Both the position numbers and the translations under genes were made by a program. A stretch of 64,000 nucleotides of DNA from Minisyncoccota bacterium (GTDB taxonomy: Bacteria > Patescibacteriota > Minisyncoccia > UBA6257 > JAGOQP01): NCBI GenBank assembly GCA_041661795.1, contig JBAZTS010000001.1:124161-188160 (forward strand). Direction: 5' to 3'. Positions 25,581 to 63,693 of this stretch are shown here, piece by piece. Position 1 is the first letter of the stretch. The number at the start of each line of letters is the position of its first letter. The notes beneath the pieces were generated by a model. The model worked only from the letters and a program-made list of their open reading frames with translations, had not been told where the DNA came from and did no database searches.

Positions 25581-25600
25581 GTGGTTGTAAAATTGAATAT

Positions 25601-31713: not shown

Positions 31714-33243
31714 TTATTTCTTGATGAAAAAGTTTATTCTAAAACTTATGAATCCGTTGCCTAAATCTGAAAAACTAGAGAGAGGCATATCTACCCTTTC
31801 TATTTTATCAATTAACTCAATTTTATTTTTAAAATCAAGCGCATAGGATTCCTTGGTGGTTCTAGCGCTTATTGAAGCCGGACTTTGGTTGCCTGATATT
31901 GATAACCTATCAATAGAAACATTACTTCCGATACTGGAATAAATTGAAGAGACCACATCAGATATTTTAATTATTTGTCCCTTGGCTTTAATGGCTTTAT
32001 CAACTCCAGTATTAAACTGTTCGGCTTCTTTTTTAAGAGTGTTTAAATAAGCGATGTTGTGATTGGCTGAAAGATTAGCCACATCACCGGCCAAACTCAT
32101 AGAAAAAGAATCCAAAAACACAAAAACTCCCCAATAAGCGAAAACTATTACTGATAAAGTGGCTATGATGACATTTTTCCAAATACTAAAAAAAGAAGTA
32201 ACTTGAGAATGAAAAAACTTGTTCTCGGTATCTTCGGGAGCCAAACTTATTTCTCTATCTTGTGATCTTGAAACTATTCCCCTAATAGCTGCTCCCAATG
32301 ATGCCGACCAAGAAACATCAACCGCAAAAGAATTTAAAGAGAGAGGAGATACTTCTAAAACAAAATTGTCCATAAGAATGTTTTTCACCTGCTCTTCAAT
32401 CCCCGGGGCAACAATATATATTTTTTTCAAGTTGTCTTGGAATCTACCAGAATAAAAGTTAATTACCCTATGACCTTCCTGAATTATTAAGGACTTAAAT
32501 TGGTCAAAAGATATTTCTCTCTGAGACCCATCTTTAGCAACGATCGTTTCCCAAGGAGAAAACCTATTAAAATATAAAGAACCCTCCCTCACCACCGAGA
32601 AGCTCATTCCATCGCTATTTATGTGCATTATAAAATACGAATATTTTTCATGATCTTTATTTATTGTATCTATAACTCTTACCAAAGAGGCGGCTTTTTG
32701 CTCAATAGCTAATACAGTAAAATCGGCCTGGGAAAGACAGGAAGACATGGAATTTATGATGTTTTTATCCACAAAAGAAGATAAAATTTCTGTCTCATGG
32801 ACAGATTTTCCTTGATCAGAAATATTTTGCCAATCAGAATAGGCACCAGAAAAGTTTATGGGAGAAATGACCTGCATATTTAATCTAACCGTTTCTTTAA
32901 AATCGGATTCCTTTAAAATCGGGAGTACAAAAGATTGAGTGTAAATATTAGAGTCGGATAACGTGACTATAACTGCTACTTTTTTATTTTTTCTGGGAGT
33001 AATGCTGTCGTGCAAAGTTTCTAAAGCTTTTATAAATTCTTTGGAATTTATAATACTCCCGTTTCTTAGGGCGCCTATCGGAATTTTAGTCGAAAATTTT
33101 GAAATTTTATTAGTATCAACATCTAGGATAGCAAAAAATACTCCATTGTCAGTAATTTCCATCCCTCCAATCTCTGTCTTGGGTTTGATTAGCCGTAAAA
33201 ACTTTTTTAGTACTTTCGTAATCATTTCGTATTTCGTAGCCAA
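31714..33243 (-). CDS. pilM: type IV pilus assembly protein PilM (actin-like ATPase fold) fused to a PilN-like TM/periplasmic segment
   Basis: 509 aa. N-terminal FtsA/PilM-like region, then a TM helix (IIATLSVIVFAYWGVFVFL) and a C-terminal periplasmic region. Located at the distal end of the pilBC-pilin operon. Confidence 0.55.
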   Translation of the reverse strand: MATKYEMITKVLKKFLRLIKPKTEIGGMEITDNGVFFAILDVDTNKISKFSTKIPIGALRNGSIINSKEFIKALETLHDSITPRKNKKVAVIVTLSDSNIYTQSFVLPILKESDFKETVRLNMQVISPINFSGAYSDWQNISDQGKSVHETEILSSFVDKNIINSMSSCLSQADFTVLAIEQKAASLVRVIDTINKDHEKYSYFIMHINSDGMSFSVVREGSLYFNRFSPWETIVAKDGSQREISFDQFKSLIIQEGHRVINFYSGRFQDNLKKIYIVAPGIEEQVKNILMDNFVLEVSPLSLNSFAVDVSWSASLGAAIRGIVSRSQDREISLAPEDTENKFFHSQVTSFFSIWKNVIIATLSVIVFAYWGVFVFLDSFSMSLAGDVANLSANHNIAYLNTLKKEAEQFNTGVDKAIKAKGQIIKISDVVSSIYSSIGSNVSIDRLSISGNQSPASISARTTKESYALDFKNKIELIDKIERVDMPLSSFSDLGNGFISFRINFFIKK

Positions 33244-34020: not shown

Positions 34021-35568
34021 TTATTTACTCCAGTTTAAATGAATATCATTCACCGTAGGAGAATTTCCAGAATCAGGAGAAAGGAATATTTTGTATCTAA
34101 AGTATCTGGAGTTATACAACCCAGAAAGCTTTTTAGAAATATTGCTGTTAGTGGGAGTGTAATAACTTGAACCAGTCCCATCCGAACCGACATATGTCCA
34201 GGGACCGCCTGATGAGTTGGATGTGGCAATTTGGAACTTAATCACGGTACCAGATGGTTTTGTCCCCTGCCAAAGAACACTATTTAGAGAAGCACCCCCA
34301 ACAACTTGTGAATCATAAATTAATGATGTTAAATCACCTGATATAGTAGTAGAAGCCAAAGTCAAGGATAATCCTGCGGTAATATTAGTTGAAGAGGAAA
34401 AAGTATTTATAATAGAAGAAGTTGTGGCATCTCCCACGTTTCCTCCCGACCAATCGTATTGGGAAAAAACATCATCTTTATACCGCGTCAAATAATTTGA
34501 AAACTTTAGATTTCTTCCATCCTGCCATTCAACAGCGCTAACAACTTTTTGAGTGGAAGGGTCATCTGTCCCACTGCTTGCTACTATATCGTTATTGCCG
34601 TCTCTTTGGACATTTTCTAAATAAAAATATCTGGAATATACGGCGCTGTTATAAATTTGTTTTATTTCTTGAGCGGAAAGAGCGCGGTTATAAACACGAA
34701 CATCGTCAATAAAACCATTTACATAGTAACCAGGATAGTATCCTATATTTGTTGCGGACCCAGTAGTTAAAGCCCCTGAAACGGGATTAGTTGCAGTTTG
34801 ATTTCCATCAATATACGACACTAAATTTGATCCGTCATAAGTCAACGCAAGAAAATGCCAACTACCATCAGTAACGCCCGATCCAGAATTAAAAACTTGT
34901 CTTCCTTGAGTTGCAGTGGTTACACCTGTACGTATCTGCCCCCCCGGATCTGGAACACTTATTTCAATCTGAGTACCCTGCATAAAAATGATATGATGAT
35001 CACTAGTAGAAACGCCAACTCTTTTAAACCACCCCGACACAGTAACGTATAGTGGCGGATTTGGTGGAGACGCAATACCCACATAATTACTTCCATTAAA
35101 ACTTAAACATCCACCGACTCGACAACTGGACGAAGCTGTGCGCGTTGGACTGCCATTTAAAGTTCCACTATTATAATTCCCCGAGGAATCATACGCTAAA
35201 GAACCTGCTGTTTCGTCCATTTTCCAATGTCCCACAAGTCCACTATTAACATCATTATATAGAATGCTTTCTTGGCCGGATACTGACACCGCTGCAGTGG
35301 AAGAAGAAACTATAAAATATTGATTAGCTGAACCTTTGTTTAAATCGTATATATTGTGCCAATTATTATTTGTGAATGATTCAACTTTATTGGCTAAATC
35401 CATAGCCAAAGAAGAAGCTGTCTGGTTTCCCCTATTCTCAAAATTATTTTTTATAACAGAAACAATAGCCACTGTGGCTCCTAAAATAAACATCCCTCCA
35501 ACAGCTATAGCGACTAAAACTTCCATCAAGAGCTGACCACTTTGATTTTTTATATTAATATGAATCAT
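34021..35568 (-). CDS. prepilin-type N-terminal domain protein with C-terminal LamG (concanavalin A-like lectin) domain; pseudopilin or tip-adhesin candidate
   Basis: Class III signal-like N-terminus (SGQLLMEVLVAIAVGGMFILG). LamG/Laminin_G_3 hallmarks (GHWKMDETAGS..., GWFKRVG..., DDVRVYNRALSAQEIKQIYN). Confidence 0.65.
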   Translation of the reverse strand: MIHINIKNQSGQLLMEVLVAIAVGGMFILGATVAIVSVIKNNFENRGNQTASSLAMDLANKVESFTNNNWHNIYDLNKGSANQYFIVSSSTAAVSVSGQESILYNDVNSGLVGHWKMDETAGSLAYDSSGNYNSGTLNGSPTRTASSSCRVGGCLSFNGSNYVGIASPPNPPLYVTVSGWFKRVGVSTSDHHIIFMQGTQIEISVPDPGGQIRTGVTTATQGRQVFNSGSGVTDGSWHFLALTYDGSNLVSYIDGNQTATNPVSGALTTGSATNIGYYPGYYVNGFIDDVRVYNRALSAQEIKQIYNSAVYSRYFYLENVQRDGNNDIVASSGTDDPSTQKVVSAVEWQDGRNLKFSNYLTRYKDDVFSQYDWSGGNVGDATTSSIINTFSSSTNITAGLSLTLASTTISGDLTSLIYDSQVVGGASLNSVLWQGTKPSGTVIKFQIATSNSSGGPWTYVGSDGTGSSYYTPTNSNISKKLSGLYNSRYFRYKIFLSPDSGNSPTVNDIHLNWSK

Positions 35569-36760
35569 ATAAATTTTTTACCTCTGTTGGAGAAAGAGCG
35601 CGATTATAAATACGGACGTCGTCAATTAGACCTTTAAAATTGTAACCACCCACTATAAACCAATTTCCAAAGGCCCAATACTTAGTTGTTGGCAAGGTTA
35701 GAGATGCTGGTATTCCTCCGTTAAAACCACTAAAGCCGATATCTTGACCGTTAATGTATGCTTTCAATTTATTTGCATTACCAATTTGAGTTCCATCAAA
35801 CACAATTACTATATTATTCCAACTCCCAGCACTGTAGCCAGCAGTATTAGTAAGACCATAATTATTTCCTGCATCAGATACACTATCTGCTACAAAACAG
35901 TAAAAATCGGTAGATGCTGAATTACTCTTTCGTAATATAATTTGTGAATTTCCTGATGAGCTCCAAGAAGACCAGAGCACTCCTGATGGATTGATGACCG
36001 GTTCTGAAAACCAAATAGACCAAGTAACTTTGTTAAGACCATCCACAATATTTTTATTTCCAATATCAATATAATCACTGGCCCCATTAAAACTAATCGC
36101 TCCTCCAAGTTTCCCAAACGCCCAAGTCGTACCTCCACCGTTATTTGCTGTTCCGTTATTTGAATTTCCCGACACATCCTCAAGTCCCACGGTTGTGTCA
36201 TCAGCAATGATTCCGCTTGTTCCTCCGTCAAATGGCCAATATCCTACCAAAGAATCGTCTTGAGAAACGCCTATCTTTCCCTGCGAGCTAATAGAAACAA
36301 CAGCGGTATTGCTCCCTCCTTTCATTCTAACAACCAAAGAGTCGGATAAAATTGGCTTCCCCGATATGGCTATAAAAGATATGGTCTTTGAGCTCCCGTC
36401 AACCGGACTAACCAAATCCGTTACCGGATTTAACCCACTTTCCACAACAACCGAAGAAGTTGCATAAGAGGTTCCTGAAAATATTTGATAGTAGTCAATC
36501 GAACTAGTACTGTTGGTAAACTTTATGCTCCAGCCATAACCCCCTTCCTGATTAATTGACCTGTTTTGCGTATTTCTTATGGCTTCAACAATATTTTCCA
36601 CATCCAAATCAAAACTGTGCCTGTTTTTATAGTTTCCAAAACCTATAAAAGCGACTCCGGCCATAACGATTACAATTCCCACGGATATCAAAAGCTCAAC
36701 CATGGTAAAGGATTTCTTGCAAGCAAAAAATCTTTTTGTTTTTCCTTTTTTGTCTTTCAT
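35555..36760 (-). CDS. prepilin-type N-terminal domain protein with C-terminal LamG domain
   Basis: Leader MKDKKGKTKRFFACKKS, then FTMVELLISVGIVIVMAGVAF. LamG hallmarks (LVGYWPFDGGTSG..., WSIWFS, DDVRIYNRALSPTEVKNLY). Confidence 0.65.
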   Translation of the reverse strand: MKDKKGKTKRFFACKKSFTMVELLISVGIVIVMAGVAFIGFGNYKNRHSFDLDVENIVEAIRNTQNRSINQEGGYGWSIKFTNSTSSIDYYQIFSGTSYATSSVVVESGLNPVTDLVSPVDGSSKTISFIAISGKPILSDSLVVRMKGGSNTAVVSISSQGKIGVSQDDSLVGYWPFDGGTSGIIADDTTVGLEDVSGNSNNGTANNGGGTTWAFGKLGGAISFNGASDYIDIGNKNIVDGLNKVTWSIWFSEPVINPSGVLWSSWSSSGNSQIILRKSNSASTDFYCFVADSVSDAGNNYGLTNTAGYSAGSWNNIVIVFDGTQIGNANKLKAYINGQDIGFSGFNGGIPASLTLPTTKYWAFGNWFIVGGYNFKGLIDDVRIYNRALSPTEVKNLYDSY

Positions 36761-36778
36761 ATAAAATACAAACTACTA

Positions 36779-37987
36779 TTAAAAACTGCTTGTCAGCTGA
36801 TACACTGGAACAATAACTGCAAGAGCTATAGTTCCGACTACAATTCCTATAAGCATCAACATAATGGGTTCTATAAAAGCCACCAGAGATTTGACTCCGC
36901 CTTCTATTTCGTTAGAGTAGAAATCTCCCAATGTTAATAAAATGCTTTCTATGTGTCCGGATTTTTCCGAAACGGCTATTAAATTAGATACTACTTTGGG
37001 AAAAATCGGTTCTTTTTTAAATGCTTCTCCAACAGTCAACCCTTTTGATATTCCTTCCCTTGAAATTCTCATCATGGCATTTTTCAACTCAGGCAAAGCA
37101 ACCGATTCGGCTGTAATTTCTATAGCATCAAGTATAGGAAGACCAGAGGATAGTAAAGATGAAAGAGTTGTGGCAAATCTTTGTAAAGCAATTTGGTGAA
37201 TAACTTTTCTGATAACCGGAGTTTTTAGGGCAATATCAAACATAATTTTTCTTCCCGGTAAAGTTTTCAAGAAGAAGTATCCCCCGCCAATAAAAAATGC
37301 GGCTAATAACAACAAAAGCCAGACAAGATTATCTCCTACAAAAAGTCCCACAGTAAAAACAATTCTTGAAAATGTCGGCGGTTTCATGCCACCCGAGAGG
37401 AAAACATTGGCAATTTTAGGAAGAGAGAAACTAACCAAAAGCACAAGAATTAATATAGAAGTGAAGAAAAGAATAACAGGATAAGTCAAAGAGGCCTTTA
37501 TTTTTCCCGTTAACTCTTTCTCTTTTTCCAAAGAAACACTTAGTTGTTCAAAGACATTTTCTAAGTTACCGGAAACTTCTCCAGCTTTTATTAAATTAAC
37601 AAAAACTTGAGAAAAAGTTTTTGGGTATTTAGCAAAAGTAGTATAAAATGGCTGGCCTTTTTCAAGATTAGCCCTGACTTCCAACAGAAAAGATTTAACA
37701 GCCGGTTTGTCAAAATCTTCAACCAATATATCTATGGCCTTAAAAAGATCTGTACCAACTTTTAACATCAGAGAAAGATATTTGGTTAAAAAAACTTTAT
37801 CCTCTAGGGTGATTTTCTGGCCAGTTAGATATTTTAAATTAATACCTGATGTTTTTATCGGCTTTATAATAATTGGCCGAAGTCCCTGGGAAGCAATAAA
37901 AGCCAAAGCGTCGTTGGTTGTTTGACCTTCCGTTTCCCCCTCTACCATTCTATTGTCGGGCCTAATGGCCTTGTAGTAAAACCTCAT
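36779..37987 (-). CDS. pilC: type IV pilus inner-membrane platform protein PilC (GspF family)
   Basis: Two GspF repeats with three TM segments. 402 aa. Adjacent to the pilB ATPase. Confidence 0.85.
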   Translation of the reverse strand: MRFYYKAIRPDNRMVEGETEGQTTNDALAFIASQGLRPIIIKPIKTSGINLKYLTGQKITLEDKVFLTKYLSLMLKVGTDLFKAIDILVEDFDKPAVKSFLLEVRANLEKGQPFYTTFAKYPKTFSQVFVNLIKAGEVSGNLENVFEQLSVSLEKEKELTGKIKASLTYPVILFFTSILILVLLVSFSLPKIANVFLSGGMKPPTFSRIVFTVGLFVGDNLVWLLLLLAAFFIGGGYFFLKTLPGRKIMFDIALKTPVIRKVIHQIALQRFATTLSSLLSSGLPILDAIEITAESVALPELKNAMMRISREGISKGLTVGEAFKKEPIFPKVVSNLIAVSEKSGHIESILLTLGDFYSNEIEGGVKSLVAFIEPIMLMLIGIVVGTIALAVIVPVYQLTSSF

Positions 37988-37991: not shown

Positions 37992-39704
37992 TTATTCCCT
38001 AATAACTCTCAGTACTTCCTCTATGCTCGTCATTCCTAAAGACGACTTTTTTAACCCATCTTCAAACATTGTTATCATTCCATTTTTTCTGGCAGTCATT
38101 AAAAGCAAATCTAAAGAAAAATTTGGATCAATTATTATTTTTCTTATATCTTCGTCAACTTCAAATGCTTCGTAAATTCCCATTCTACCTTTATACCCGG
38201 TTCCTCCGCAGGCCTTGCAACCCTTTCCTCTATAAAAAGTTTTGGGCATCTGAACATCAGGAAGATTTAAATCTTTTATCTGTATTTTTAATGAAGAAAC
38301 AAAGTTTTCCTCCGGAACAAAAGATTCAATACAGTCCACACATATTTTTCTTAACAATCTTTGGGCAACAACTAAATTTAAAACGGCAGCTGCCAAAAAG
38401 GGAGGGACTTTCATATCAATAAGACGAGGAACGGCTGTTGGGGCATCGTTAGTGTGGAGTGAGGACAAAAGTAAGTGACCGGTCAAGGCGGCATTAATAC
38501 CTATTTGGGCGGTTTCTTCATCTCTAATTTCACCAACCATTATAATGTTTGGATCTTGTCTTAAAATTGACCTTAAGCCAGAAGCAAAAGTTATCCCCGC
38601 AAGCGGATTTATTTGTATTTGATTTATATACCTGATGTTGTATTCAATAGGATCTTCAATGGTAACAATGTTAACTTGTGACCTGTTGAGCATATTTAAA
38701 ATTGAGTAAAGAGTCGTGGTTTTACCAGAACCGGTAGGACCGGTAACTAAAATCATCCCATATGTCTTTTTTATATTTTTTTCCACAATTTTAGCGGTTT
38801 CCTCCAACATTCCAAGCTCAGTTAAAGAAAGAGGTCTTTGAGTTCCGGGTAAAAGACGCATAACAATTTTTTCCCCATATAATGTAGGAATAACCGAAAT
38901 ACGAACATCTATCACAACAGAACCCGATTTATATCTGAAACGTCCATCTTGAGGTTTTTGATGCTCGTCAACTTTAAGAGCGCCAAGAAGCTTAATTCTT
39001 GCAATAATCGCCGAATGGACTTCTTTGGGGATTTCTAAAATTTCATAGAGTATCCCGTCAACTCTAAATCTTACCAAAATTTGGTCCTCTAAAACCTCTA
39101 AATGAACATCGGAGGAATTTAGAGAAGTAGCATATGAGAGCATATTGTTAACTATGTCAACTATGGGAATTTGAGTAGCCGCCTCTTCTTCTTTTGCGGA
39201 AGATATCTTTCTTTCCAGAGATGTTTTTATATTATCCTCTATGATTTTTTTAAAATCCTCAGTCAGTTGAGAGCCATAATAGGAAAATCCTTTAGCCAAA
39301 TCTTCTGGAGAAGCCAAGAAAGGCCTTATTTTAGCCGATATTTTCTTTTCCAAAAACTCAATTGTGGGAAGATCGGTTGGATCTTCCATGGCTACGTTTA
39401 TAGTTCCATCGGCATCTTTTAAAAAAGCAATAACGTTTCTTTCTCGGGCAAATTTTTCATCTACTTTTTCCAATACCGACTTATCTATAGTTCTTAAACC
39501 AAGATTAGCTCTCTCCACCCCAAAATAAGAGGATAGAAAATTGTAAAGATAATCCCTGCTAACAAAACCCTTAGAGATAAGCACATCTCCTATGTTCTGA
39601 TTCATTCTTGACGATTCATCAACAGCTTTATCAAATTGGTCTTCGCTTATAAGACCCTGATCAATGAGTATCTCTTTTATTTTTTGAGATGGGATTCTTA
39701 ACAT
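37992..39704 (-). CDS. pilB: type IV pilus assembly ATPase PilB (GspE family)
   Basis: N-terminal GSPII_E_N domain. Walker A GPTGSGKTT. Asp box, Walker B, and the His box HTNDAPTAVPRLIDM. Confidence 0.9.
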   Translation of the reverse strand: MLRIPSQKIKEILIDQGLISEDQFDKAVDESSRMNQNIGDVLISKGFVSRDYLYNFLSSYFGVERANLGLRTIDKSVLEKVDEKFARERNVIAFLKDADGTINVAMEDPTDLPTIEFLEKKISAKIRPFLASPEDLAKGFSYYGSQLTEDFKKIIEDNIKTSLERKISSAKEEEAATQIPIVDIVNNMLSYATSLNSSDVHLEVLEDQILVRFRVDGILYEILEIPKEVHSAIIARIKLLGALKVDEHQKPQDGRFRYKSGSVVIDVRISVIPTLYGEKIVMRLLPGTQRPLSLTELGMLEETAKIVEKNIKKTYGMILVTGPTGSGKTTTLYSILNMLNRSQVNIVTIEDPIEYNIRYINQIQINPLAGITFASGLRSILRQDPNIIMVGEIRDEETAQIGINAALTGHLLLSSLHTNDAPTAVPRLIDMKVPPFLAAAVLNLVVAQRLLRKICVDCIESFVPEENFVSSLKIQIKDLNLPDVQMPKTFYRGKGCKACGGTGYKGRMGIYEAFEVDEDIRKIIIDPNFSLDLLLMTARKNGMITMFEDGLKKSSLGMTSIEEVLRVIRE

Positions 39705-46083: not shown

Positions 46084-46180
46084 ATGAAATCGTTAACCGT
46101 ATACAGTATACAGGTATATAAGATAAACGAAAAAACAAGATAAATCAAGCTATTTATGCATCCGTTATTTTTTATAATTT

Positions 46181-47503
46181 TTAGTATAAAGAATATTTAC
46201 CGTCTAAATATTTTTCTACACTTTCGCGTTCATTGTCAGAAAGAGCTCTGTTATATACTATAATTTCGGCCATTTGTGAATTAGCACTGAGTGTTCCACC
46301 AATTGTATAAATTTCGTCGGTAAGATTAGGAACGGCGTTACAAGAATCACAGGTATAGAAAGACCCAATTGTTCCGTTATATCTCAATATTGGGTCCCTA
46401 TATCTATCTCCACTATTATTTGTCACAGAAAAAATACCGAAATTACTATAATCAAACCCCGTATTTCTCATGACTGAATATCCATCGGTATAACCGATAA
46501 CTCCATCAAAAGGGCCATTCCTATAATAAAGAATCCTTGTTGTTCCTCCTGCTCCAGAAGAAGATCCAAAGGAAAAGAATTTTACCCCATCTTCATACCA
46601 AGTCAAACTTTTTCCAACAAAGAACACTGAAGAAGCTCCAGAGCCACTTACTCCCAAAGCTCCTCCAGCCAAAGAATCATTTGCTCCGTCAAATTGGACT
46701 ACCGACTTTCCATTAACCTGGTTGGTTTTAAAAAGCGGTTTATAACTTACATTACTTTGTATGGCATCATTATTGTTTCCAGATAGATCATCCCAAGTTG
46801 AAATTGGATCATTATTAGAAAGATTTAGGGAGTCGGCTTTAAGCCATAATTTTGGGTCATTAGGTGACAAAAAAAGATTCATGCCAGCTTCAAATCTGAC
46901 GGGATCTCCACCTCCGTCACCAGAAGCAACTTCTTTTATCTTTTTTTCTGATTCCAAAAGAGCGGTCAAAATATATCCACCATTACTATCCACAGCATAA
47001 GCATAAAAATTAGATGTGGATACGGCATTGGTTTCATCTATAGGAAGATCAGATATAAAAGGTCCAACCGATGTTATTCTGGTAAAATCAATTGGAATCC
47101 AACCCGTTCCATCAACATTTTTAAAGGTTGAAGTAGGGGCACATTTGTAAGACCACCCAGAAATTGCGGGAAGTCCTAAGTTTGCGCATGTTGTAGAAGA
47201 ATCGGGAATGGAAATATATAAAGTATTAACGCTACCCAAAGACAAATTACCCAGTCCCGAGTATTTATATTTTTCAACGGCAATTTTAAGGTTGTTTAAA
47301 TCCGATATTCTTCTGGCATCCTTGCTTTCTTGTATAAAAGAAACTGGATTTAAAATAATAACTGTGGCCGCCGAAAGAACGATTATAATACCAACTGTTG
47401 TTAAAAGCTCACCCATAGTGAAGGAACGGGTATCGTATACCGTATACCGTATACCGGGATAGAGCAAATGCTTCTTAAGTTTAGATTTTATAAATTCAAT
47501 CAT
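46181..47503 (-). CDS. prepilin-type N-terminal domain protein with C-terminal LamG domain (mosaic paralog A)
   Basis: Leader MIEFIKSKLKKHLLYPGIRYTVYDTRS, then FTMGELLTTVGIIIVLSAATVII. LamG C-terminus (AEIIVYNRALSDNERESVEKYL). The leader contains a GTATACC x3 heptamer array. Confidence 0.65.
   Translation of the reverse strand: MIEFIKSKLKKHLLYPGIRYTVYDTRSFTMGELLTTVGIIIVLSAATVIILNPVSFIQESKDARRISDLNNLKIAVEKYKYSGLGNLSLGSVNTLYISIPDSSTTCANLGLPAISGWSYKCAPTSTFKNVDGTGWIPIDFTRITSVGPFISDLPIDETNAVSTSNFYAYAVDSNGGYILTALLESEKKIKEVASGDGGGDPVRFEAGMNLFLSPNDPKLWLKADSLNLSNNDPISTWDDLSGNNNDAIQSNVSYKPLFKTNQVNGKSVVQFDGANDSLAGGALGVSGSGASSVFFVGKSLTWYEDGVKFFSFGSSSGAGGTTRILYYRNGPFDGVIGYTDGYSVMRNTGFDYSNFGIFSVTNNSGDRYRDPILRYNGTIGSFYTCDSCNAVPNLTDEIYTIGGTLSANSQMAEIIVYNRALSDNERESVEKYLDGKYSLY
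47430..47456. repeat. tandem heptamer array (GTATACC)x3, 21 nt, in-frame inside the 5' coding region of the pilin-LamG gene
   Basis: GTATC-GTATACC-GTATACC-GTATACC seen directly. It encodes ...PGIRYTVYDTRS... in the leader peptide. Confidence 0.75.
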
Positions 47504-47532
47504 TTCTTCTGTATTCGGTATACGACGCCCAG

Positions 47533-48441
47533 TTATACGCCACTTAGTATTTTTATTTTATCCGACACCACTTTTTCCACTTCATGAACTACTTCGGGAA
47601 GTATCTTATAAGGAACGATTTCGTTGGGACGAGATAAAAGAGCCAAATCCAAACCTCTCTTCCAGGCAGTTCTAAGTTCTGTATTGATATGAACAATAGA
47701 TACTCCCGCCAAAACAGCCAGTTTTAATTGTTCGTTAGAAACCCCAGACGCCCCATGTAAAACCATGGGAATATCAATCATGCTTTTTATCTCTTTTATT
47801 CTCTCTACATCAAGATTGGGGTCGGAAGCATCCAAAAACATTCCATGCAGAGTCCCTAGTGCCGGCGCCAGTAAATCTATTCCCGTTTCTTCTATAAATC
47901 TTTTGGCATCTTCGGGTTTAGTCAAATCTTCTTTTTTAACAGAAACACCTTCTGGGATTCTATCTAAAATAACTGACCCGGAACCTATATATCCAAGCTC
48001 CCCTTCCACCAAAACATCGCAATTATTTTTCTGGTTATATTCTTTGACAAAATTAACAACCTCTTTTGTCTCTCTTATGTTTTCTTCAATATTTTCTTTT
48101 CCGGCATCAAACAAAACTGCGTCAAATCCGGCCTCAACCGCTTCTTTTATTTTACCAAAAGAATGCGTATGGTCAGCGTTAAGAAAAATAGGAAAATTTC
48201 CGCCCGAGGCGGATCCGTCTATGATGGAAAATTCTTCTCTTAAACTTTTTATAAGAGCCACAACTTGTTTTATGCCTATAAAATCTCTTTCCCCTTCTGA
48301 AACTCCTATAATAACGGGCTGTTTCAAAGCGTAAGCAGCATCAAAAATTCCCTTAAGAGCCGCCAAATCGGAGATATTAAAATGCCCAACAGCTACATTG
48401 TGTAACTGAGCATCTTTTATTATTTCTCGCAATGTTTGCAT
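47533..48441 (-). CDS. fba: class II fructose-bisphosphate aldolase
   Basis: Class II FBA/TBP aldolase family motifs (NVAVGHFNISD, LNADHTHSF, HGASG). Contains an in-frame GC-rich palindromic insert at 48200..48217. Confidence 0.8.
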   Translation of the reverse strand: MQTLREIIKDAQLHNVAVGHFNISDLAALKGIFDAAYALKQPVIIGVSEGERDFIGIKQVVALIKSLREEFSIIDGSASGGNFPIFLNADHTHSFGKIKEAVEAGFDAVLFDAGKENIEENIRETKEVVNFVKEYNQKNNCDVLVEGELGYIGSGSVILDRIPEGVSVKKEDLTKPEDAKRFIEETGIDLLAPALGTLHGMFLDASDPNLDVERIKEIKSMIDIPMVLHGASGVSNEQLKLAVLAGVSIVHINTELRTAWKRGLDLALLSRPNEIVPYKILPEVVHEVEKVVSDKIKILSGV

Positions 48442-48448
48442 GGACTTA

Positions 48449-49720
48449 TTATATACTAATATATCCTTTAGTGATATTTTCTTTAGTCATTTCTTCCATT
48501 TTCCCCTCACCAAAATAGGAAGAAAATATTTTATTCCATAGTGACTCCTGATGATGATAAAGATACTTAATCATTTCAACCTTTTTAACTAAAGCCATTG
48601 AGGTATCTATAAGATTAAAGCTGACTAGAACTTCTATCCCGGTATCAGTAGAAAAATAATCGCCTATCCAATTCAGCCCCGCCCAGAAAGCAAAATCTCC
48701 ATCCAAGCCATGTTTTTTTGCCAACTCAACAATATTCTTTTCTGCTTTCTCCCAATGCAAGGCCTCCGGGTTAACGTGAGGATAAAAAAGACGCCAGTCG
48801 TTTTCGTCGTCTTTGGCTAAATATCTTTGAGTAACCATCCAATCTCCTTCCTTTATCAGTTCCTTAGAATCAATTACGTCGCCTCTTAAAAGAGAGGAAA
48901 AATCTTCAAAAAAGTTATGATTTATTATCTTTTTTCCGCCCGAGGCGGATCCGCCTATGGCGGAGAATACATCCGAATAAAAAGATATTTCATTAACATA
49001 ATGGAATAAGAGAGCCACGGTTCTTATGAGTTCTCCGGGGATATCCAAGGATATAGGAATGACAAATATTATTCCTAATTCTTTTAAGTGGCTAATGTTG
49101 TGATATTTTTTTTCAACAAATTTCTGAGCCAACTCTTTCCATCTGTCGCTGATAGAAATGATTTCTATTGGCCTTATCTCAAAATCAGCGCTGGACAAAT
49201 CTTGATAATGCCTGATAAAAAACATATTTATCCATTCAGCTCCTTCTACAAATCTAAGGGCGCTGGCTACTTCCCTCCAGTCCTCTTTTTTGAGCATCTC
49301 TGAAACGCTTTGATAACCAAGTGCGGAAAGAATCTTTTTAGGCGGTTCTTTTTCCAATATTTCTATAAACTTGTCTTTTTTTATAAAAAATCCTTCTTTT
49401 TTACCAACCACCAGATTAACCGCCTCAATTATTTTTTGGCATCCACCAACTTCAAAATGACATGGATTTCCTAAAACCGAATTGAGAATTTTATCGTCCT
49501 TGTTTATTTTTCCTATAAGAGCGTCAAATATTTGTTTGGCGCTGGAATCTTTTTTGAGACCAAGAAAGCTTAGTTTTTCCAGCATTATTGCCTCATTGTC
49601 AGAGCAAATTTCATCAAGCATTCTGGCTTTATTGGTAATTTTGCCAAGCTTATCCTGAACGTTTTTTATAACATCTTTATCGGTTCTTAAAATTCTTGCA
49701 ATTTTTTCGTAGGATTCCAT
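48449..49720 (-). CDS. hypothetical protein (423 aa) sandwiched between two pilin-LamG genes
   Basis: No motif recognised. Carries the longest copy of the GC-rich palindromic element (48936..48963), encoding AIGGSASGGK. Confidence 0.5.
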   Translation of the reverse strand: MESYEKIARILRTDKDVIKNVQDKLGKITNKARMLDEICSDNEAIMLEKLSFLGLKKDSSAKQIFDALIGKINKDDKILNSVLGNPCHFEVGGCQKIIEAVNLVVGKKEGFFIKKDKFIEILEKEPPKKILSALGYQSVSEMLKKEDWREVASALRFVEGAEWINMFFIRHYQDLSSADFEIRPIEIISISDRWKELAQKFVEKKYHNISHLKELGIIFVIPISLDIPGELIRTVALLFHYVNEISFYSDVFSAIGGSASGGKKIINHNFFEDFSSLLRGDVIDSKELIKEGDWMVTQRYLAKDDENDWRLFYPHVNPEALHWEKAEKNIVELAKKHGLDGDFAFWAGLNWIGDYFSTDTGIEVLVSFNLIDTSMALVKKVEMIKYLYHHQESLWNKIFSSYFGEGKMEEMTKENITKGYISI

Positions 49721-49729
49721 AAATTTATT

Positions 49730-51055
49730 TTAATATAAAGCGTATTTGTTATTTAAATATTTTTCTACGCTTTGACGTTCTCCTGTGGTTAATGTGTGAT
49801 CATAAAGAATAATTTCAGCAATTTGTACGTTAGAAAAACCTTCCACATTACTAGCTCCTTGCGAAGCTCCGATTAAATATTCGTCGTCGTCAGTATTTGA
49901 AGTACCAGCACAACCATCAGCAGCGTTGTAACTATAAGCCGCTCCGTTGACATAGAGACCGCCAGAACAGTTAGTTCCTCCAGTGGAATCTTGTTGATCA
50001 ATTAATTTAAAAGAAGTTTGATCAAATCCTTCTCCGAATTTAATCCAAGCACCTCCCATCGATCTCCAGAAACTCAACGGAGCAGTTCTAAATCCGAAAT
50101 ATTTAAATTGTCCGTCTGCTCCGGTTGAAGAACCTAAATAAACAACAGCCACAGGATCTCCATACCAACTCAAACTTTTAGCTACTATAAATAAAGTTTG
50201 ACCTCTAGTACCAGAAATTCCTGTTGGTCCTCCAATTAGATAATTATCAATTCCATCAAATTGAACTACCGAATTTCCATTAACTTGATTGGTTTTTAAG
50301 ATCGGCTTATAACTTACATTACTTTGTACGGCATTATTATTATTTCCAGACATATCGTTCCAAGTTGAAATTGGATCATTATCAGAAATCCCCAAGGAAT
50401 CCGCCTTTAACCATAATCTGGGACCATTAGATACTAAGGAGAGGTCAGTTCCTTTTTCAAATCTAATTGGATCTCCACCTCCGTCATTAGAAGCAGCAGA
50501 AATAAATTTATTTGATTCTATAAGAGCTGCTAGTTTCCAAGATCCTCCTGGAATATACGTATAATAAAGTCCATCTGAAGCAGAGTTAGTGGGATCAATA
50601 GGAAGAGATGAAAGTTGAATAACGGATTGAGTAGTAAAATTGACAGGAATCCAACCTGTTCCATCTGTCTTGATAAGGTTAGTTATAGTAACACAATTAT
50701 ATATGTATCCCGTAGGTAAAGAAGGAAGACCAAGATTGTCGCATGTTGCTGAAGAATCAGGGATGGAGACATAGACGGTAAGAGATGTTCCAAAGGAAAG
50801 GGTGGGGTCTATGACTTCTAGGTTCTGGAGGGAGTTATTGAGTAAAGAGAGGTCTTGCATTCTACGAGAGTCCCTAGTTTGAGCAAGATAATCAGCAGGG
50901 TTGAGGACGATAATGACTGCGGTTGTGAGTACGGCAAGAATACCTATAACAACGAGGAGTTCTACAAGGGTGAAGGAACGGGAATTGTATACCGTAGACC
51001 GTATACAGGGATAAGAAAAATACTTCTTTAGTTTGGATTTAATAGATTTATTCAT
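49730..51055 (-). CDS. prepilin-type N-terminal domain protein with C-terminal LamG-like domain (mosaic paralog B)
   Basis: Leader MNKSIKSKLKKYFSYPCIRSTVYNSRS, then FTLVELLVVIGILAVL. The N-terminal third is near-identical to the 62398..63693 protein. The middle segment is near-identical to the 46181..47503 protein. Confidence 0.65.
   Translation of the reverse strand: MNKSIKSKLKKYFSYPCIRSTVYNSRSFTLVELLVVIGILAVLTTAVIIVLNPADYLAQTRDSRRMQDLSLLNNSLQNLEVIDPTLSFGTSLTVYVSIPDSSATCDNLGLPSLPTGYIYNCVTITNLIKTDGTGWIPVNFTTQSVIQLSSLPIDPTNSASDGLYYTYIPGGSWKLAALIESNKFISAASNDGGGDPIRFEKGTDLSLVSNGPRLWLKADSLGISDNDPISTWNDMSGNNNNAVQSNVSYKPILKTNQVNGNSVVQFDGIDNYLIGGPTGISGTRGQTLFIVAKSLSWYGDPVAVVYLGSSTGADGQFKYFGFRTAPLSFWRSMGGAWIKFGEGFDQTSFKLIDQQDSTGGTNCSGGLYVNGAAYSYNAADGCAGTSNTDDDEYLIGASQGASNVEGFSNVQIAEIILYDHTLTTGERQSVEKYLNNKYALY
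50987..51007. repeat. degenerate heptamer array GTATACC-GTAGACC-GTATACA in the 5' coding region of pilin-LamG paralog B
   Basis: Seen in sequence. It encodes ...PCIRSTVYN.... Further GTATAC motifs lie in the promoter region 51061..51090. Confidence 0.65.
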
Positions 51056-51088
51056 TTTTACGGTATACGATATACTGTATTTAGTATA

Positions 51089-52090
51089 CTATTTTCTCAA
51101 TATTCTTGCCGCTTCTTCTGGAAAAACAGAGTTTATTTCAACTCCTGTTCCTAATTCAAATCCAGCAGAAATATTGGACTTGGGAACAATCTCAATGTGC
51201 CAATGGTAGCGAGAGTGTTTATTTTTTTCAAAAACCGGGGCGGTATGAATAAAGAAATTATAATCAGGGTCATTAATATTTTTTCTGATTAAATTCAGAA
51301 TTTTTTGTAAAATTTGTGTGAGAAATGACAAGTTTTTTAAAGAAGCGTCTTCAAAATAAGCCGAGTGTTTTAAAGGAAAGAGATTAATCTGATACGGTTC
51401 TTTGGAAGCAAACGGAGTAAAAGCAATAAATTCTTTATTTTTAAAAACTATTCTTTTTTTATCTTTAATTTCGGTTTTAATAATTTCACAATGAATGCAA
51501 CGATGATATTTTCTATTATATTCAGATGAAGAATCTAAAGATCTTTTGATGGTATGAGAAACTACCGGTAAGGCCAAAATCTGATAGTGAGGATGAAAGA
51601 TTGAAGCTCCGGCTTGTGCTCCCCAATTATGAAATAAAGAAATATATTTAACTCTTTTATCTATAGCTAATTGTCTGTATCTTTTTTGCAAAGCCAAAAG
51701 AACATTTAAGGCCTGCTTGTCACCCAAATCAGGAAACGACTTAAAATGATTTCTGGTAATAAGCAGATCATGATGTCCAAACCCAGAAACTGTTTCATAT
51801 ATTCCCCTTTTTTTTATTTTAACGCTAACCTTAGGACCATCAAAAACGGCCGGATATTTATTTTCAAGAACTTGAAGTTCCCACTTTTCCAACGGCAGTT
51901 TTTCCGGAAACCAAAAATATGGATATCTATTACCATTTTTTTGAGGGTTCTCAAACGGACAAGAGTTTACAGGAGAAGGTTTCCTCTTAGGAGTTATTTT
52001 CTTTTTGAGTTCATTGGGTCTTTTGGAGCGCTTAGAATTAACCAAGACCCATTCTCCAGTTGTCACGTGATAGCGAAGTTCTGAATTCAT
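51089..52090 (-). CDS. galT: HIT-superfamily nucleotidyltransferase, galactose-1-phosphate uridylyltransferase-like
   Basis: N-terminal Zn-site-like NSCPFE. HIT-type FHPHYQI (HxHxQ) active-site motif. 333 aa. Family-level inference. Confidence 0.5.
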   Translation of the reverse strand: MNSELRYHVTTGEWVLVNSKRSKRPNELKKKITPKRKPSPVNSCPFENPQKNGNRYPYFWFPEKLPLEKWELQVLENKYPAVFDGPKVSVKIKKRGIYETVSGFGHHDLLITRNHFKSFPDLGDKQALNVLLALQKRYRQLAIDKRVKYISLFHNWGAQAGASIFHPHYQILALPVVSHTIKRSLDSSSEYNRKYHRCIHCEIIKTEIKDKKRIVFKNKEFIAFTPFASKEPYQINLFPLKHSAYFEDASLKNLSFLTQILQKILNLIRKNINDPDYNFFIHTAPVFEKNKHSRYHWHIEIVPKSNISAGFELGTGVEINSVFPEEAARILRK

Positions 52091-52092: not shown

Positions 52093-54075
52093 TTATTTTA
52101 ATCTGTTTTCATAATACCACTCAAACACTTTCTTGGCTACCGGAACAGCATTTAAACTACCCTCCTTGGCGTCTTCTATCAGCACTAAGACAGCTATTTG
52201 TTGAGGTATCGCAGATTCACCCTGATCAAGACGTGGATTGTCGCCGATATTCTCATCTGCGCTTATCTGCGTTGTTTCCTTTGGAAGCAAGTTGTAGCCA
52301 ACAAAAAATGCATTTACTTTGGCATTATTTTCTATCTGAGCACTTCCGGTTTTGGCGGCAATTTTTAAAGGAATACCATTCAATATATGAGAGGTTCCAT
52401 ATTCTTTTTCTACTCCATCCATCATTCCTTTTTCAACTTCGGAAAAATTATTAACATCAGAAAACTCCATCAAATCATAAGACGGATTTTTAGTAAAAAC
52501 AGATTCTTGTAAATTATTTTTAATTTCCTTTACTAAATAAGGATTGAAAAGTTTCCCCTTAGAATTAATGGCTGATATATATCTTAAAAGAGCTAACGGG
52601 CTAATCATTAAATCTCCCTGACCTATGGAAACGTTATAAGTATCTCCTATTCTCCAAATTTGACCCGTTCTTTCCTCTTTTTTCTCCGGATCTGGTAGGA
52701 CCCCAACCGATTCGCCGATAATATCTATACCTGTCTTTTTATCTAATAAAAACTTTTTCCAATAATCTATTAACCTATAAACCCCAAGACCCTTTAGATT
52801 TTCTCCGCCCAAGGCGGATCCGCCTTTGGAGGAAAATCCTCCACCAACTTCGTAGAAGTAAACATTGCTGGAACGAGCCAGGGCTGAATACAAATTAACC
52901 CAGCCATGTGCTTTCCAATCAACAAATCTTGAGGGTTTGTCTGGAAAATAAGGATTGGGAATTTCTATGTAACCGGCAGAAAAAATCGAATAAAAAGGAT
53001 CAACTACTTTTTCTTCTAAAGCCCCAAAAGCCACCAACGGCTTGATGGTAGACCCCGGGCTGTATATTCCAGAAATTATTCTATTAAATGTCGGCCTGAG
53101 AGAATCGGAAAAAAGAGAGGATGACAAGTTATTATTGTCAAAACTTGGCAAACTCACCATAGAAAGAATTTCACCGTTTGATGGATCCATAATAAGCCCA
53201 GCTCCTGATTTTCTGCCCAAAAAATTAAGTTGATTTTTAAGTTCCGTATAAAAGAACTTTTGTAAATCAGCATCTAAAGTAGTGGTCAAACTACTGCCCG
53301 AAACAGGATCGGAAAATTTTTTCTCTTCAATAGTATTTCCCAAAGCGTCTTTGAAAACCACCGTGCTTCCTTTTTTACCTCTAATATATTTATCGTAATA
53401 TGCCTCTAAACCACTTTTGCCTATTTCATCATTTAAATCAAAACTTTCGTCAGTGTCTATATCATTACGACTCACTAGTCCTACATAACCTAATACGTGT
53501 GAAAAAACCTCTCCGTCAATATATCTCCTGGAGAAATTGTTTTCTACCAGAAGAAAATCAAAATTGAGATTCTTTATAGCCAAGCTCTGTTCCAAAGATA
53601 TATTTTTTAAAAGAGTAAGATGCGATTGTCTCTCTAAATTAGCCGATAGAATTGAATCTTTTATGGTCTGTTTATCAAAAGGAACTATTATGTTTATTTT
53701 TTCTAAAAGATTATCCAATTCATCTCTTCTTTTTAGAAGTTGAGAAAGAGATAAGACCGCGTCAAAACTGGGATTATTGGCAACCAAAGATGTCCCATAT
53801 CTGTCATAGATAACTCCCCTTGGAGCTGTTAAAATAATTTCTTGTCCGGCATTGGCCAAAGCTCTAATTTTATAAAAATCATCACCAAATCCAATGTAAA
53901 TAAATCTAAAAGCAAACAACAGAATAACCGCAAAGATTACGAGCCCAACAATTTTGAACACAGAAAAAGAGACGGGTTTTTCCACGGCTTCTAAACCTTG
54001 GGAAAAATCGTCTAAAATCGCATCCTCTAAAAAAATCTCTTTTCTAGCCATAGTCCTAAGAAAAAGAACAAACAA
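52093..54075 (-). CDS. mrdA: penicillin-binding protein 2 (elongasome transpeptidase)
   Basis: N-terminal TM anchor. Transpeptidase motifs STIKP (SxxK), SSN-like, and KTGSA (KTG). Directly downstream of mreBCD. Contains an in-frame palindromic insert at 52805..52832 encoding KGGSALGGE. Confidence 0.8.
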   Translation of the reverse strand: MFVLFLRTMARKEIFLEDAILDDFSQGLEAVEKPVSFSVFKIVGLVIFAVILLFAFRFIYIGFGDDFYKIRALANAGQEIILTAPRGVIYDRYGTSLVANNPSFDAVLSLSQLLKRRDELDNLLEKINIIVPFDKQTIKDSILSANLERQSHLTLLKNISLEQSLAIKNLNFDFLLVENNFSRRYIDGEVFSHVLGYVGLVSRNDIDTDESFDLNDEIGKSGLEAYYDKYIRGKKGSTVVFKDALGNTIEEKKFSDPVSGSSLTTTLDADLQKFFYTELKNQLNFLGRKSGAGLIMDPSNGEILSMVSLPSFDNNNLSSSLFSDSLRPTFNRIISGIYSPGSTIKPLVAFGALEEKVVDPFYSIFSAGYIEIPNPYFPDKPSRFVDWKAHGWVNLYSALARSSNVYFYEVGGGFSSKGGSALGGENLKGLGVYRLIDYWKKFLLDKKTGIDIIGESVGVLPDPEKKEERTGQIWRIGDTYNVSIGQGDLMISPLALLRYISAINSKGKLFNPYLVKEIKNNLQESVFTKNPSYDLMEFSDVNNFSEVEKGMMDGVEKEYGTSHILNGIPLKIAAKTGSAQIENNAKVNAFFVGYNLLPKETTQISADENIGDNPRLDQGESAIPQQIAVLVLIEDAKEGSLNAVPVAKKVFEWYYENRLK

Positions 54076-54497: not shown

Positions 54498-55173
54498 TTA
54501 AATTAATGGAATTTACAACCCAAATATTCCTAAGATTTGTAAGAGAATAAGGCAGATCAATAGTGGCCTCCAAAAAAGCCCCCGAAGAGCTTTCTCCAAC
54601 CGAACTAATCGTGCCGATAAATAATCCATAGGAGAAATCTTTAGAAGCCGAGAATATCTCTTCCCCAGGATTAATGCTTTTAGTTTTATCAACGAACGAT
54701 ATTTTAGGGCTTAATCCTCCTTCAAGTAAACCGTCAATTTCTTGGGATCCTATTCTTACTGGCAAAGAAAAAGATGGGTCAAACAAAGTTATTACTTCAC
54801 TAGTTTTTTGATTAACATTGGATATTTTCCCTACAATAACTTCGCCATCAAGAAGAACTGCCTCGTTTTTATTGACTCCTAAGTAGCTTCCACTATTAAT
54901 ATATAACCGACTCTTGGTATTAAAAGGATATAGAGAAAAAACTTTAGCTGGAATATAATTTTCTTCCAAATTATCTGCCTTTGCGGTAATTCTATTTATT
55001 TCATTCCTAAGACCCTGATTTTCTGATTTTAGAAGAGTATTCTCTTCAACCAAAGACCCGATTTTAAAAATCTTTGAAATACCACCCGAAAAACCCGCTG
55101 GTTTATTAAACGCCAAAGGAGAAATAATCAAGATGACCAACAAAATTATCAGAGTGCCAAAAAAATATTTCAT
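54487..55173 (-). CDS. mreC: rod shape-determining protein MreC
   Basis: N-terminal TM helix. Coiled coil (LKSENQGLRNEINRITAKADNLEE). C-terminal beta domains. Conserved operon position. Confidence 0.7.
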   Translation of the reverse strand: MKYFFGTLIILLVILIISPLAFNKPAGFSGGISKIFKIGSLVEENTLLKSENQGLRNEINRITAKADNLEENYIPAKVFSLYPFNTKSRLYINSGSYLGVNKNEAVLLDGEVIVGKISNVNQKTSEVITLFDPSFSLPVRIGSQEIDGLLEGGLSPKISFVDKTKSINPGEEIFSASKDFSYGLFIGTISSVGESSSGAFLEATIDLPYSLTNLRNIWVVNSINLNGQ

Positions 55174-62350: not shown

Positions 62351-62397
62351 AATCTGTGTCAGATTTATGTTAGTGCTTTTACCTAAAATATGCAAAT

Positions 62398-63693
62398 TTA
62401 TCTAGTTGCGTTGTATAAAGCTTTGGCTTCTGCGGCAGAGATCGCTCTGTTATAAATATGAACATCATCTATATACCCATCAAATGTCCTGGTGGGAGTT
62501 GACATATTTCCTATGGCTAGACTTGACCCGGCATCAGATACCCGGCTACCAGCTCCGTTAGTTGCAGAAAGAACAGCTAAATTGCCATTAATATAATGAA
62601 TAACATTTCCAGAACAGGTGTCAGAACCATTCCATGTAATTACAAAATGGTTCCATTGATTTAATGGCGTTCCGGAACTAACAGCACAAGAAAGATTTGT
62701 GGACGAATAATCAACTGCAAAATTAATTGTTCCCGCAGCATTTATTGTTACAGTATAACCATTCACAATCGCGCTACTGGTTGTTTTGTCCAATACTCTG
62801 CCTAAAGTTTGCCCACCGCTTTTTGGATAAACCCAAGCAGAAAGAGTCATTGCCGAAAGATCATCTAAAGAACTATCCGAACCAACATTTACAACATCGT
62901 CTATTTTATCAAAAGAAACGGCGCCTCCGACTTTTCCTTGTACCCAAGTCATTCCCGTTCCATTGACATTTCCAGCCGTTCCACTATTAACAGTGCCTGA
63001 AGAATTTTCCAAGCCGGACGTTGAACTATTTGCTATTGACCCTGATGTTCCTCCGTCAAACTTCCAGTATCCTACAAGACCAGTATCTTTTATCGGACTT
63101 ATGGTCTTGTCTGTTCCAATTTCATACATGGAATATGAATCCCCTCCATCAGAGGATACTCTGTCTTTATCTCCTGATAATCTGTATTTATTGGATTCTA
63201 AGATAGTATTTATTTCCCAGGAACCTCCGGGTGTATATGTATAATAAAGTCCATCTGTAGGGGTGTTGGTAGGATCTATGGGTAAAGCAGAGAGTTGAAC
63301 AATAGATTGAGTAGTAAAGTTGACAGGAACCCAACCTGTACCATCTGTTTTGGTGAGATTAGCTGTAGAGACACAGTTATATGTATATCCTGAGGGGAGA
63401 TTGGGTAATCCTAAGGTTCCACAGGTAGAAGAAGCATCATCTGGTATGGAGATATAGACAGTAAGAGAGGTTCCAAAGGATATGGTAGGATCTATAGCTT
63501 CTAGGTTCTGGAGGGAGTTGTTTAAGAGGGAGAGGTCGTTTAACCTACGAGAGTCCCTGGCTTGAGCAAGATAATCAGAAGGATTGAGGATGATAACGAC
63601 TGCTGTAGTAAGGACTGCTAGGATACCTATGACGACGAGGAGTTCTACAAGGGTGAAAGAATTATTTTGTTTTACTAATTTAAATTTTTCCAT
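62398..63693 (-). CDS. prepilin-type N-terminal domain protein with C-terminal LamG domain (mosaic paralog C)
   Basis: MEKFKLVKQNNS|FTLVELLVVIGILAVL. The N-terminal ~200 aa are near-identical to paralog B. LamG C-terminus (GYWKFDGGTSG..., LSAWVYPKS, DDVHIYNRAISAAEAKALYN). Confidence 0.65.
   Translation of the reverse strand: MEKFKLVKQNNSFTLVELLVVIGILAVLTTAVVIILNPSDYLAQARDSRRLNDLSLLNNSLQNLEAIDPTISFGTSLTVYISIPDDASSTCGTLGLPNLPSGYTYNCVSTANLTKTDGTGWVPVNFTTQSIVQLSALPIDPTNTPTDGLYYTYTPGGSWEINTILESNKYRLSGDKDRVSSDGGDSYSMYEIGTDKTISPIKDTGLVGYWKFDGGTSGSIANSSTSGLENSSGTVNSGTAGNVNGTGMTWVQGKVGGAVSFDKIDDVVNVGSDSSLDDLSAMTLSAWVYPKSGGQTLGRVLDKTTSSAIVNGYTVTINAAGTINFAVDYSSTNLSCAVSSGTPLNQWNHFVITWNGSDTCSGNVIHYINGNLAVLSATNGAGSRVSDAGSSLAIGNMSTPTRTFDGYIDDVHIYNRAISAAEAKALYNATR

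Follow-up and report, generated by a model that had tools for sequence, protein, structure and literature searches.

Are the genes that join a type IV pilin to a LamG domain in this Minisyncoccota genome mosaics of one another and, if they are, do they form part of a system that is still shuffling its cassettes? We considered this question for a stretch of 64,000 nt of contig JBAZTS010000001.1 (the window, to which all scans, counts and negative results refer unless stated). An initial annotation, made from the sequence alone, had listed five open reading frames (ORFs) in which a type IV prepilin N-terminus is followed by a LamG/concanavalin-like domain; all five were found where it had placed them, all on the minus strand, and are called here A, B, C, P1 and P2. 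[quoted passage not shown] The four dispersed genes are the following.

46181..47503, minus strand: A, modular pilin of 440 aa; its pilin core is of the type resident at this locus (stand-alone in relatives) and its LamG module is closest to that of B.
49730..51055, minus strand: B, modular type IV pilin of 441 aa, with the pilin core of the B/C/D clade and the leader and LamG module of the A clade.
62398..63693, minus strand: C, modular pilin of 431 aa, with Pfam Laminin_G_3 at aa 265-422; its ortholog (P0008) lies in pfkB-C-mreB synteny.
L005 8001-9221, on the same 230-kb contig and outside the window: D (P0009), fourth dispersed modular pilin, of 406 aa, between def and fmt.

The class III signal-peptide motif is visible in A, B, C and P2 ([S]FT[LM][VG]ELL), as well as in a stand-alone pilin of 177 aa described below. 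The prepilin N-terminus attributed to all five ORFs was recognisable in four of them, that of P1 being degenerate (GQLLMEVLV). Pfam N_methyl scored above the cut-off in B, C and the 177-aa pilin and below it in A, P1 and P2. The leaders of A and B are unusually long, with 27 aa. As for the C-terminal half, Pfam Laminin_G_3 (PF13385) matches C, P1 and P2 with E-values from 3e-27 to 4e-18, and D matches both Laminin_G_3 and Toxin_R_bind_N, its pilin globular core being 89% identical in aa to that of C. A and B have no Pfam LamG match; their fusion was established by a profile of the A/B subfamily, which retrieved from the PDB 4qvs (E=1.4e-12), the carbohydrate-binding module (CBM) of an arabinanase (1.5e-8), CBM40 (5e-7) and Streptococcus sanguinis PilC (2e-4), matches that are described as LamG/CBM40/pentraxin-type structures.

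We also modelled B with AlphaFold2 (AF2). The run with 89 homologs reached a predicted local distance difference test (pLDDT) score of 80.6 and a predicted template modelling (pTM) score of 0.78, after an earlier run with 17 sequences had given a pLDDT of 60.7 and a poor pilin module. In the model a long alpha1 helix (residues 30-82) and a beta-sheet pilin head are followed by a separately folding jelly-roll, and confidence is low only at residues 323-358, within the LamG part that is least conserved between A and B. Both the pilin fold (an N-terminal alpha-helix on an antiparallel beta-sheet) and the two-sheet jelly-roll fold of the LamG module were recovered; by profile and by AF2 the C-terminal domains are predicted to be lectin folds, as the initial annotation had proposed. 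The pilin module ends at a DGGGDP..FE.G motif, matching the stand-alone pilin, and the jelly-roll comes after it. Since A, B and C each consist of a signal peptide, a pilin module and a jelly-roll, they fall under the modular type IV pilins as defined by Raynaud et al. (PMC8179133), with a lectin-type module like that of PilC (PMC9934059). In the databases A and B are entered as hypothetical proteins without any precomputed Pfam domain, and the JGI gene calls start A at Met30 and B at Met66, so that the class III signal peptide is lost.

Pilus assembly machinery (PilB, PilC and PilM) is encoded in the window, in an operon with the order response regulator, 177-aa pilin, PilB, PilC, P2, P1, two small ORFs and PilM. 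Its features relevant here are the following.

39786-40319, minus strand: stand-alone pilin of 177 aa with the canonical G/FTLVELL motif, directly upstream of pilB and after the response-regulator gene.
37992..39704, minus strand: PilB-type assembly ATPase (T2SSE).
36779..37987, minus strand: PilC-type platform protein (T2SSF).
35555..36760, minus strand: P2, operon-encoded pilin of 401 aa with a Laminin_G_3 module.
34021..35568, minus strand: P1, operon-encoded pilin-like protein of 515 aa with a degenerate N-terminus, a Laminin_G_3 module and an extra C-terminal region.
31714..33243, minus strand: PilM-like assembly protein.

The 177-aa pilin, which was absent from the initial annotation, is a sixth member of the family, as found by a six-frame motif scan and tblastn of the window, and is probably the major pilin. 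Its alignment with A, B and C covers all of their first 200 residues and takes in the terminal DGGxD..YE.GTD motif, which is part of the pilin module and not of LamG. Overall, the pilin modules of the modular pilins are 33-45% identical to it; for the alpha1 of B and C the identity is 82%.

The blocks that B shares with its paralogs were obtained by a BLASTN self-comparison and are given here in the direction of transcription.

50970-51075, minus strand: 5' block of B common to A, 81% nt identity over 106 nt with A 47418-47523 (minus strand).
50506-50978, minus strand: block of B common to C (pilin alpha1 helix and globular core, pilin module), 77.6% nt identity over 477 nt with C 63186-63661 (minus strand).
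50156-50495, minus strand: block of B common to A (end of the pilin module and N-terminal half of LamG), 73.5% nt identity over 340 nt with A 46589-46928 (minus strand).

The longer two blocks overall show 73-79% DNA identity. For these two the initial annotation had estimated about 85%, and at the positions that it compared we measured 78.7% and 75.2%; its description of them as near-identical was likewise too strong, aa identity being 77-88% between B and C and 74% between A and B. It had not noticed the 5' block, which contains GTATAC repeats and takes in the start codon, the 27-aa leader and the 20 nt upstream. The local GC enrichment that it reported is found in the B/C pilin block (0.41-0.42, against 0.368 in the window) and is inconsistent in the A/B block (0.40 and 0.35). 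The synonymous divergence (dS) of the shared blocks is 0.87 between B and C and 0.6-0.7 between A and B (A aa 220-280).

In sliding windows B tracks C at aa 30-176, with about 80% aa identity and a third-codon-position identity of about 0.6, and tracks A in the leader and at aa 176-275, with a third-position identity of 0.64-0.80, whereas the third-position identity with the non-partner is at background (about 0.3) in both segments of B. Synonymous-site similarity between the paralogs is limited to the shared blocks. A two-breakpoint max-chi2 test on the B/A/C triplet gave B aa 30-176 as the best segment (chi2 130, with 0/500 permutations as extreme); informative sites at which B equals A were 28 of 174 inside this segment and 237 of 343 outside it. 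The max-chi2 values for mosaicism were 130-151, each with 0/500 permutations, far beyond chance.

We then built neighbour-joining trees of the two modules, where A_rel, B_rel and C_rel are the orthologs in the sister genome described below and P0006 was included without contig placement. In the pilin-module tree, B, B_rel, C, C_rel, D and P0006 form a group with 99% bootstrap that leaves A outside, and A, A_rel and the stand-alone A-locus pilins form another with 96%. In the LamG tree, A, A_rel and B group together with 88% bootstrap, inside a class with 99% that is apart from C and D. Since the segment trees are incongruent and synonymous similarity is confined to the shared blocks, recombination is needed to explain the genes, and A, B and C are confirmed as true mosaics. 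The initial annotation was right on this point, and the module phylogenies, whose congruence it had named as counter-evidence, conflict.

For comparison we used a sister genome, represented by contigs L001 and L002 of one JGI sample (3300014208), the only close relative genome in the databases. These contigs share with the source genome the gene orders galT-B-X-fba-A-L25, around A and B, and pfkB-C-mreB, around C (X is a hypothetical gene described at the end). The flanks are 85-89% identical, and housekeeping genes have dS values of 0.13-1.25, several of them near 0.4. At the B locus the alignment with L001 spans the pilin module, breaks at B aa 174 and resumes at the stop codon of B; the LamG of the sister's B-locus gene (P0004) is only 14-24% identical to that of B. 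At the C locus the LamG core cannot be aligned over about 460 nt, on either side of which the sequence is conserved. Between A and its sister ortholog dS is 0.04-0.4 in the pilin module, 1.0-2.75 at LamG aa 280-380 and 0.2-0.3 in the tail. In this case dS, and not dN alone, makes the jump, which therefore reflects replacement by a diverged allele and not local adaptive substitution. The lectin modules are the variable part between the related genomes.

More distant relatives keep the order X-fba-[pilin]-L25 with a stand-alone pilin of 196-218 aa (L038-L042), and in L044 the A locus holds a pilin with an unrelated C-terminal module of 200 aa. A protein search with A returned as full-length relatives only its ortholog and then B, and confirmed that there are just two close alleles. 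A metagenome scan anchored on X found one close relative, the sister contig, all the others being at most 63% identical, and a search of genome contigs with the pilin-module profile gave only distant pilins among the matches listed, with the generic FTLxELL pattern dominant. Precisely, the most economical history to which the sequences point would have two steps: the resident A-locus pilin would have gained a B-related leader and LamG in the ancestor of both sister genomes, and the LamG at the B locus would have been replaced later in one lineage, a direction that we infer from two genomes only. In addition, the B ortholog tracks C at aa 91-142 (chi2 24.7, 0/500 permutations), and the pilin modules of C, C_rel and B_rel differ across loci by a dS of 0.38-0.44, about as little as the orthologs of C (0.35). 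These observations are no more than suggestive of limited gene conversion among the pilin modules, the dS differences being about two standard errors by a rough estimate.

Is any such exchange still going on? We ran tblastn with all family members and obtained six full-length loci in the 64 kb and no truncated or silent copy. The copies are all complete genes, each provided with a start and a signal peptide, and their synteny with the surrounding housekeeping genes is conserved. Recent conversion tracts, visible as long identical stretches, were not found either, the longest identical run between paralogs being 23 nt and the dS of the shared blocks 0.6-0.9. As exact runs do not exceed 23 nt and the shared blocks have a dS no lower than that between the two species (about 0.4), the exchanges are old.

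Three programmed systems were considered and rejected for the window. Antigenic variation of the pilE/pilS type was rejected because silent 5'-truncated donors and long identical tracts are missing and synteny is kept in the sister genome. A shufflon (Rci/sfx) was rejected because no shufflon-like inverted repeats flank A, B or C, all copies lie on the same strand, and no recombinase was found among the ORFs scanned, as no transposase or reverse transcriptase was, in a scan that covered part of the ORFs of the window only. A diversity-generating retroelement (DGR) was rejected for the same lack of a reverse transcriptase in the scanned ORFs and because the window self-comparison contains no second copy of any LamG core, as a template repeat would be. 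The evidence speaks against an active system: judged from the sequences, the exchange would be evolutionary and not programmed cassette switching, and the cassette-style shuffling of the initial annotation is not supported as an ongoing mechanism.

The explanation that we propose is as follows. Each of A, B, C and D carries a class III signal peptide, a complete pilin module and a C-terminal concanavalin A-like/LamG jelly-roll. The pilin module, homologous end to end with the 177-aa pilin encoded beside pilB and pilC, would dock the subunit into the pilus built by PilB, PilC and PilM, and the identity of the B and C alpha1 with that of the 177-aa pilin is compatible with such co-assembly. The lectin module would thereby be exposed and could bind glycans on the host or on a partner cell. 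B joins the leader and LamG of the A clade to a pilin core of the B/C/D clade, and in A a B-like LamG follows the pilin core that is native to the fba-L25 locus. Between the sister species the LamG of B has been replaced wholesale, and the LamG cores of A and C in patches, with conserved flanks. The exchanges have the look of ordinary recombination, homologous or illegitimate, among paralogs and alleles, and selection acting on an adhesin of the cell surface may have retained their products. A role in host attachment is reasonable if S. sanguinis PilC (PMC9934059) and Saccharibacteria PilX1 (PMC11623550) are taken as analogues; the position at the pilus tip and the variation of host range that had been suggested for these proteins are putative.

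Beside the starts of A and B we observed a short repeated element. The palindromic hexamer GTATAC is clustered in a 7-bp tandem register at 47434-47455, 47510-47523, 50987-51007, 51062-51089, 46098-46112 and 11534-11575. The pattern GGTATACGGTATAC, with at most 2 mismatches, matches 13 times where 0.11 matches are expected, and four clusters hold 13 of the 17 GTATAC of the window; they are located around the A and B starts, a short way upstream of L25 and close to the divergent region of rnhB and dnaE. At A and B one copy is upstream of the ATG and one is inside the leader codons 'YPGIRYTVY'; the copies in A, in the A ortholog and in B can pair as a hairpin enclosing the ribosome binding site and the ATG, with weak z values of -1.6 to -2.5. 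Neither C nor the B ortholog has the element, which may serve as an operator or in the control of translation. A scan for promoter and terminator consensus found 19 sites against 19.8 expected.

The rival explanations differ in how much of this they can accommodate. Two of them deny the mosaicism, and both appear highly improbable. According to one, no recombination took place, and uneven constraint and rate variation along vertically diverged paralogs produced the blocks. In its favour, the alpha1 helix of pilins and the framework strands of LamG tend to be conserved and loops to be variable, and dS estimates are noisy; but constraint of this kind fits neither the third-codon identity of 0.6-0.8 in the shared blocks against about 0.3 elsewhere, nor the conflict of the two module trees at 88-99% bootstrap, nor the grouping of the pilin core of A with positional orthologs that have no LamG at all, nor a LamG of B that cannot be aligned with its positional ortholog between flanks of 85-89% identity. 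The other attributes false mosaics to a contig that is chimeric between strains or paralogs, as could occur in a metagenome-assembled genome like this one, the more so as the chimera of B is known from this genome only. Such assembly chimerism is unlikely, to the same marked degree: with no exact run between paralogs above 23 nt the assembler graph could not jump, the architecture of A recurs in an independent contig from another sample, the cluster of the product of B has two member sequences on two contigs, and the breakpoints are in frame, with domains that are intact and fold confidently in AF2.

Other rivals accept the mosaicism and give it another meaning. The dispersed copies could be cassettes of an active, programmed variation, exchanging lectin and pilin segments by gene conversion and so switching host specificity, and the reality of the mosaic blocks, the patch at aa 91-142 where B_rel resembles C and not B, of which it is the positional ortholog (a pattern suggestive of conversion in small tracts), the closeness across loci of the C, C_rel and B_rel pilin modules, equal to that of C orthologs, and the 5' element common to A and B all go in this direction. 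We nevertheless hold it to be rather improbable, given identical runs of at most 23 nt, shared-block dS at or above the divergence of the two species, copies that are all full-length and syntenic with no silent or truncated ones in the window, and the lack of shufflon-like inverted repeats and, in the scanned ORFs, of a recombinase or reverse transcriptase. Equally doubtful is the idea of the pilin-lectin paralogs as a working repertoire, in which the pilin module would be partly homogenised by gene conversion, the lectin module re-assorted, and the GTATAC 5' element would serve A and B as a shared switch that determines which adhesin is produced; if true, the repertoire would be a host-range variation system for an obligate epibiont, made of complete genes instead of silent cassettes. 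Somewhat less improbable, although still unlikely, is that the proteins are pilin-like and not host adhesins, their LamG serving polysaccharide or nutrient capture, self-aggregation or biofilm formation, or as a phage-receptor decoy. Against it, those characterised proteins that are the nearest analogues either bind glycans of the host or favour binding to it (PMC9934059; PMC11623550), and a surface that recognises a partner is consistent with the rapid allelic replacement seen in the lectin core.

Modular pilins with LamG heads and an old exchange of modules remain the reading that we favour, and some observations weigh against it. Position -1 of the predicted cleavage site is Ser, and not Gly, in A, B, C and P2; the modular family as a whole has the consensus SFTLIELL, and the 177-aa pilin has Gly at -1. 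No prepilin peptidase was found among the window ORFs scanned, and the recombinase scan has the partial coverage given above. We infer glycan binding, incorporation into the pilus and the location at tip or shaft. When and in which direction the exchanges took place is judged from two genomes and from noisy Nei-Gojobori dS values over segments of 40-150 codons, and the particular chimera of B is known from this genome alone. Windowed dN/dS in the variable cores, a crude estimate, is below 1 (0.1-0.8), except for a few windows in poorly aligned, saturated B comparisons, and positive selection is not demonstrated.

How common is this architecture? A search with the pilin module gave 871 cluster representatives (50% identity) at E<=1e-30. 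The best 150 are almost all about 400 aa long with the pilin module at the N-terminus, and Laminin_G_3 was present in 91 of the 120 top representatives. Other modules fused to the pilin module are Fibrinogen_C, FGE-sulfatase, Fib_succ_major and CBM_4_9 (e.g. P0020, P0021, P0027, P0084, P0011, P0113), as well as Ig-like domains. FGE-sulfatase has a C-type-lectin fold and is the usual target of DGRs, and the pilin-FGE-sulfatase fusions may be DGR-diversified pilus adhesins. The pilin-lectin architecture is already known and abundant, and CPR proteins are listed among the most frequent modular pilin architectures (PMC8179133).

The modular type IV pilins of S. sanguinis are PilC, with a lectin module that was shown to bind glycans, and PilB, with a vWA module (Raynaud et al. 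2021, PMC8179133; Shahin et al. 2023, PMC9934059). Their pilin moiety is shortened and their genes are clustered in the pil locus, whereas in this genome the pilin module copies the probable major pilin at full size, the paralogs are dispersed among housekeeping genes, position -1 is Ser, and module exchange among paralogs is documented. The minor pilins PilX1 and PilX2 of Saccharibacteria (TM7x) are also CPR type IV pilins with lectin-like (beta-jelly-roll) C-terminal domains, and they are implicated in the binding of host cell-wall glycans (PMC11623550); they belong to another CPR class, their genes are in pil loci, and paralog mosaicism is not known to have been reported for them. In the R64/IncI shufflon, alternative C-termini of the PilV adhesin set the specificity for the partner cell, which needs clustered invertible segments, sfx repeats and Rci (PMC9045228; PMC11852207). 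The likeness to it is in the alternative C-terminal segments on a type IV pilus adhesin; the genes described here are kilobases apart on one strand, without sfx-like repeats and with no recombinase in the scanned ORFs. In Neisseria pilE/pilS the silent copies lack a promoter and are truncated at the 5' end, gene conversion depends on RecA and occurs at high frequency, and the conserved tracts are long. As in that system, pilin variants arise here from recombination between paralogs, with a conserved N-terminus and a variable C-terminal part, but among complete genes, by ancient exchanges and with no silent copies in the window. Receptor-binding modules are also exchanged in phage tail fibres and tailspikes; here the carrier is a cellular pilus subunit, with no phage context in the window.

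Host recognition and attachment in CPR/Patescibacteria are largely unknown outside a few cultivated Saccharibacteria. This locus would supply candidates for them, that is several lectin-headed pilins per genome, whose lectin cores are the part replaced fastest between sister species, on one pilin carrier module to which hundreds of Paceibacteria lineages have joined many heads. The value of these genes lies in putative host-specificity determinants that are testable and in a documented module exchange, not in a new mechanism.

As regards the surroundings of these genes, the window is AT-rich (GC 0.37), with closely packed housekeeping genes that include 16S rRNA, tRNAs, dnaE, gyrB, aminoacyl-tRNA synthetases and mreBCD-pbp2. 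Gene X (48449-49720, minus strand), between B and fba, encodes a hypothetical protein of 423 aa without a Pfam or NCBIfam match; it is widely conserved, with 160 relatives confirmed in metagenomes, often directly upstream of fba. There are two MreB paralogs (55173-56213 and 61340-62395), the second directly downstream of C, and the pfkB-C-mreB order is kept in the relative. A perfect 51-nt direct repeat, at 25416-25466 and 25533-25583, adjoins the tRNA cluster.

Finally, a GC-rich palindromic element of about 36 nt, with core CCGCCCGAGGCGGATCCGCC, is found at 5945-5972, 48197-48231, 48932-48967 and 52801-52836, and in L001 at 4670-4708 and 8477-8517, with 7 matches against 0 expected. It lies in frame within four unrelated genes (trmD, fba, X and a PBP2-like gene), encodes ..GSASGG.. 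in fba and X, and resembles the in-frame palindromic insertion elements of Rickettsia.

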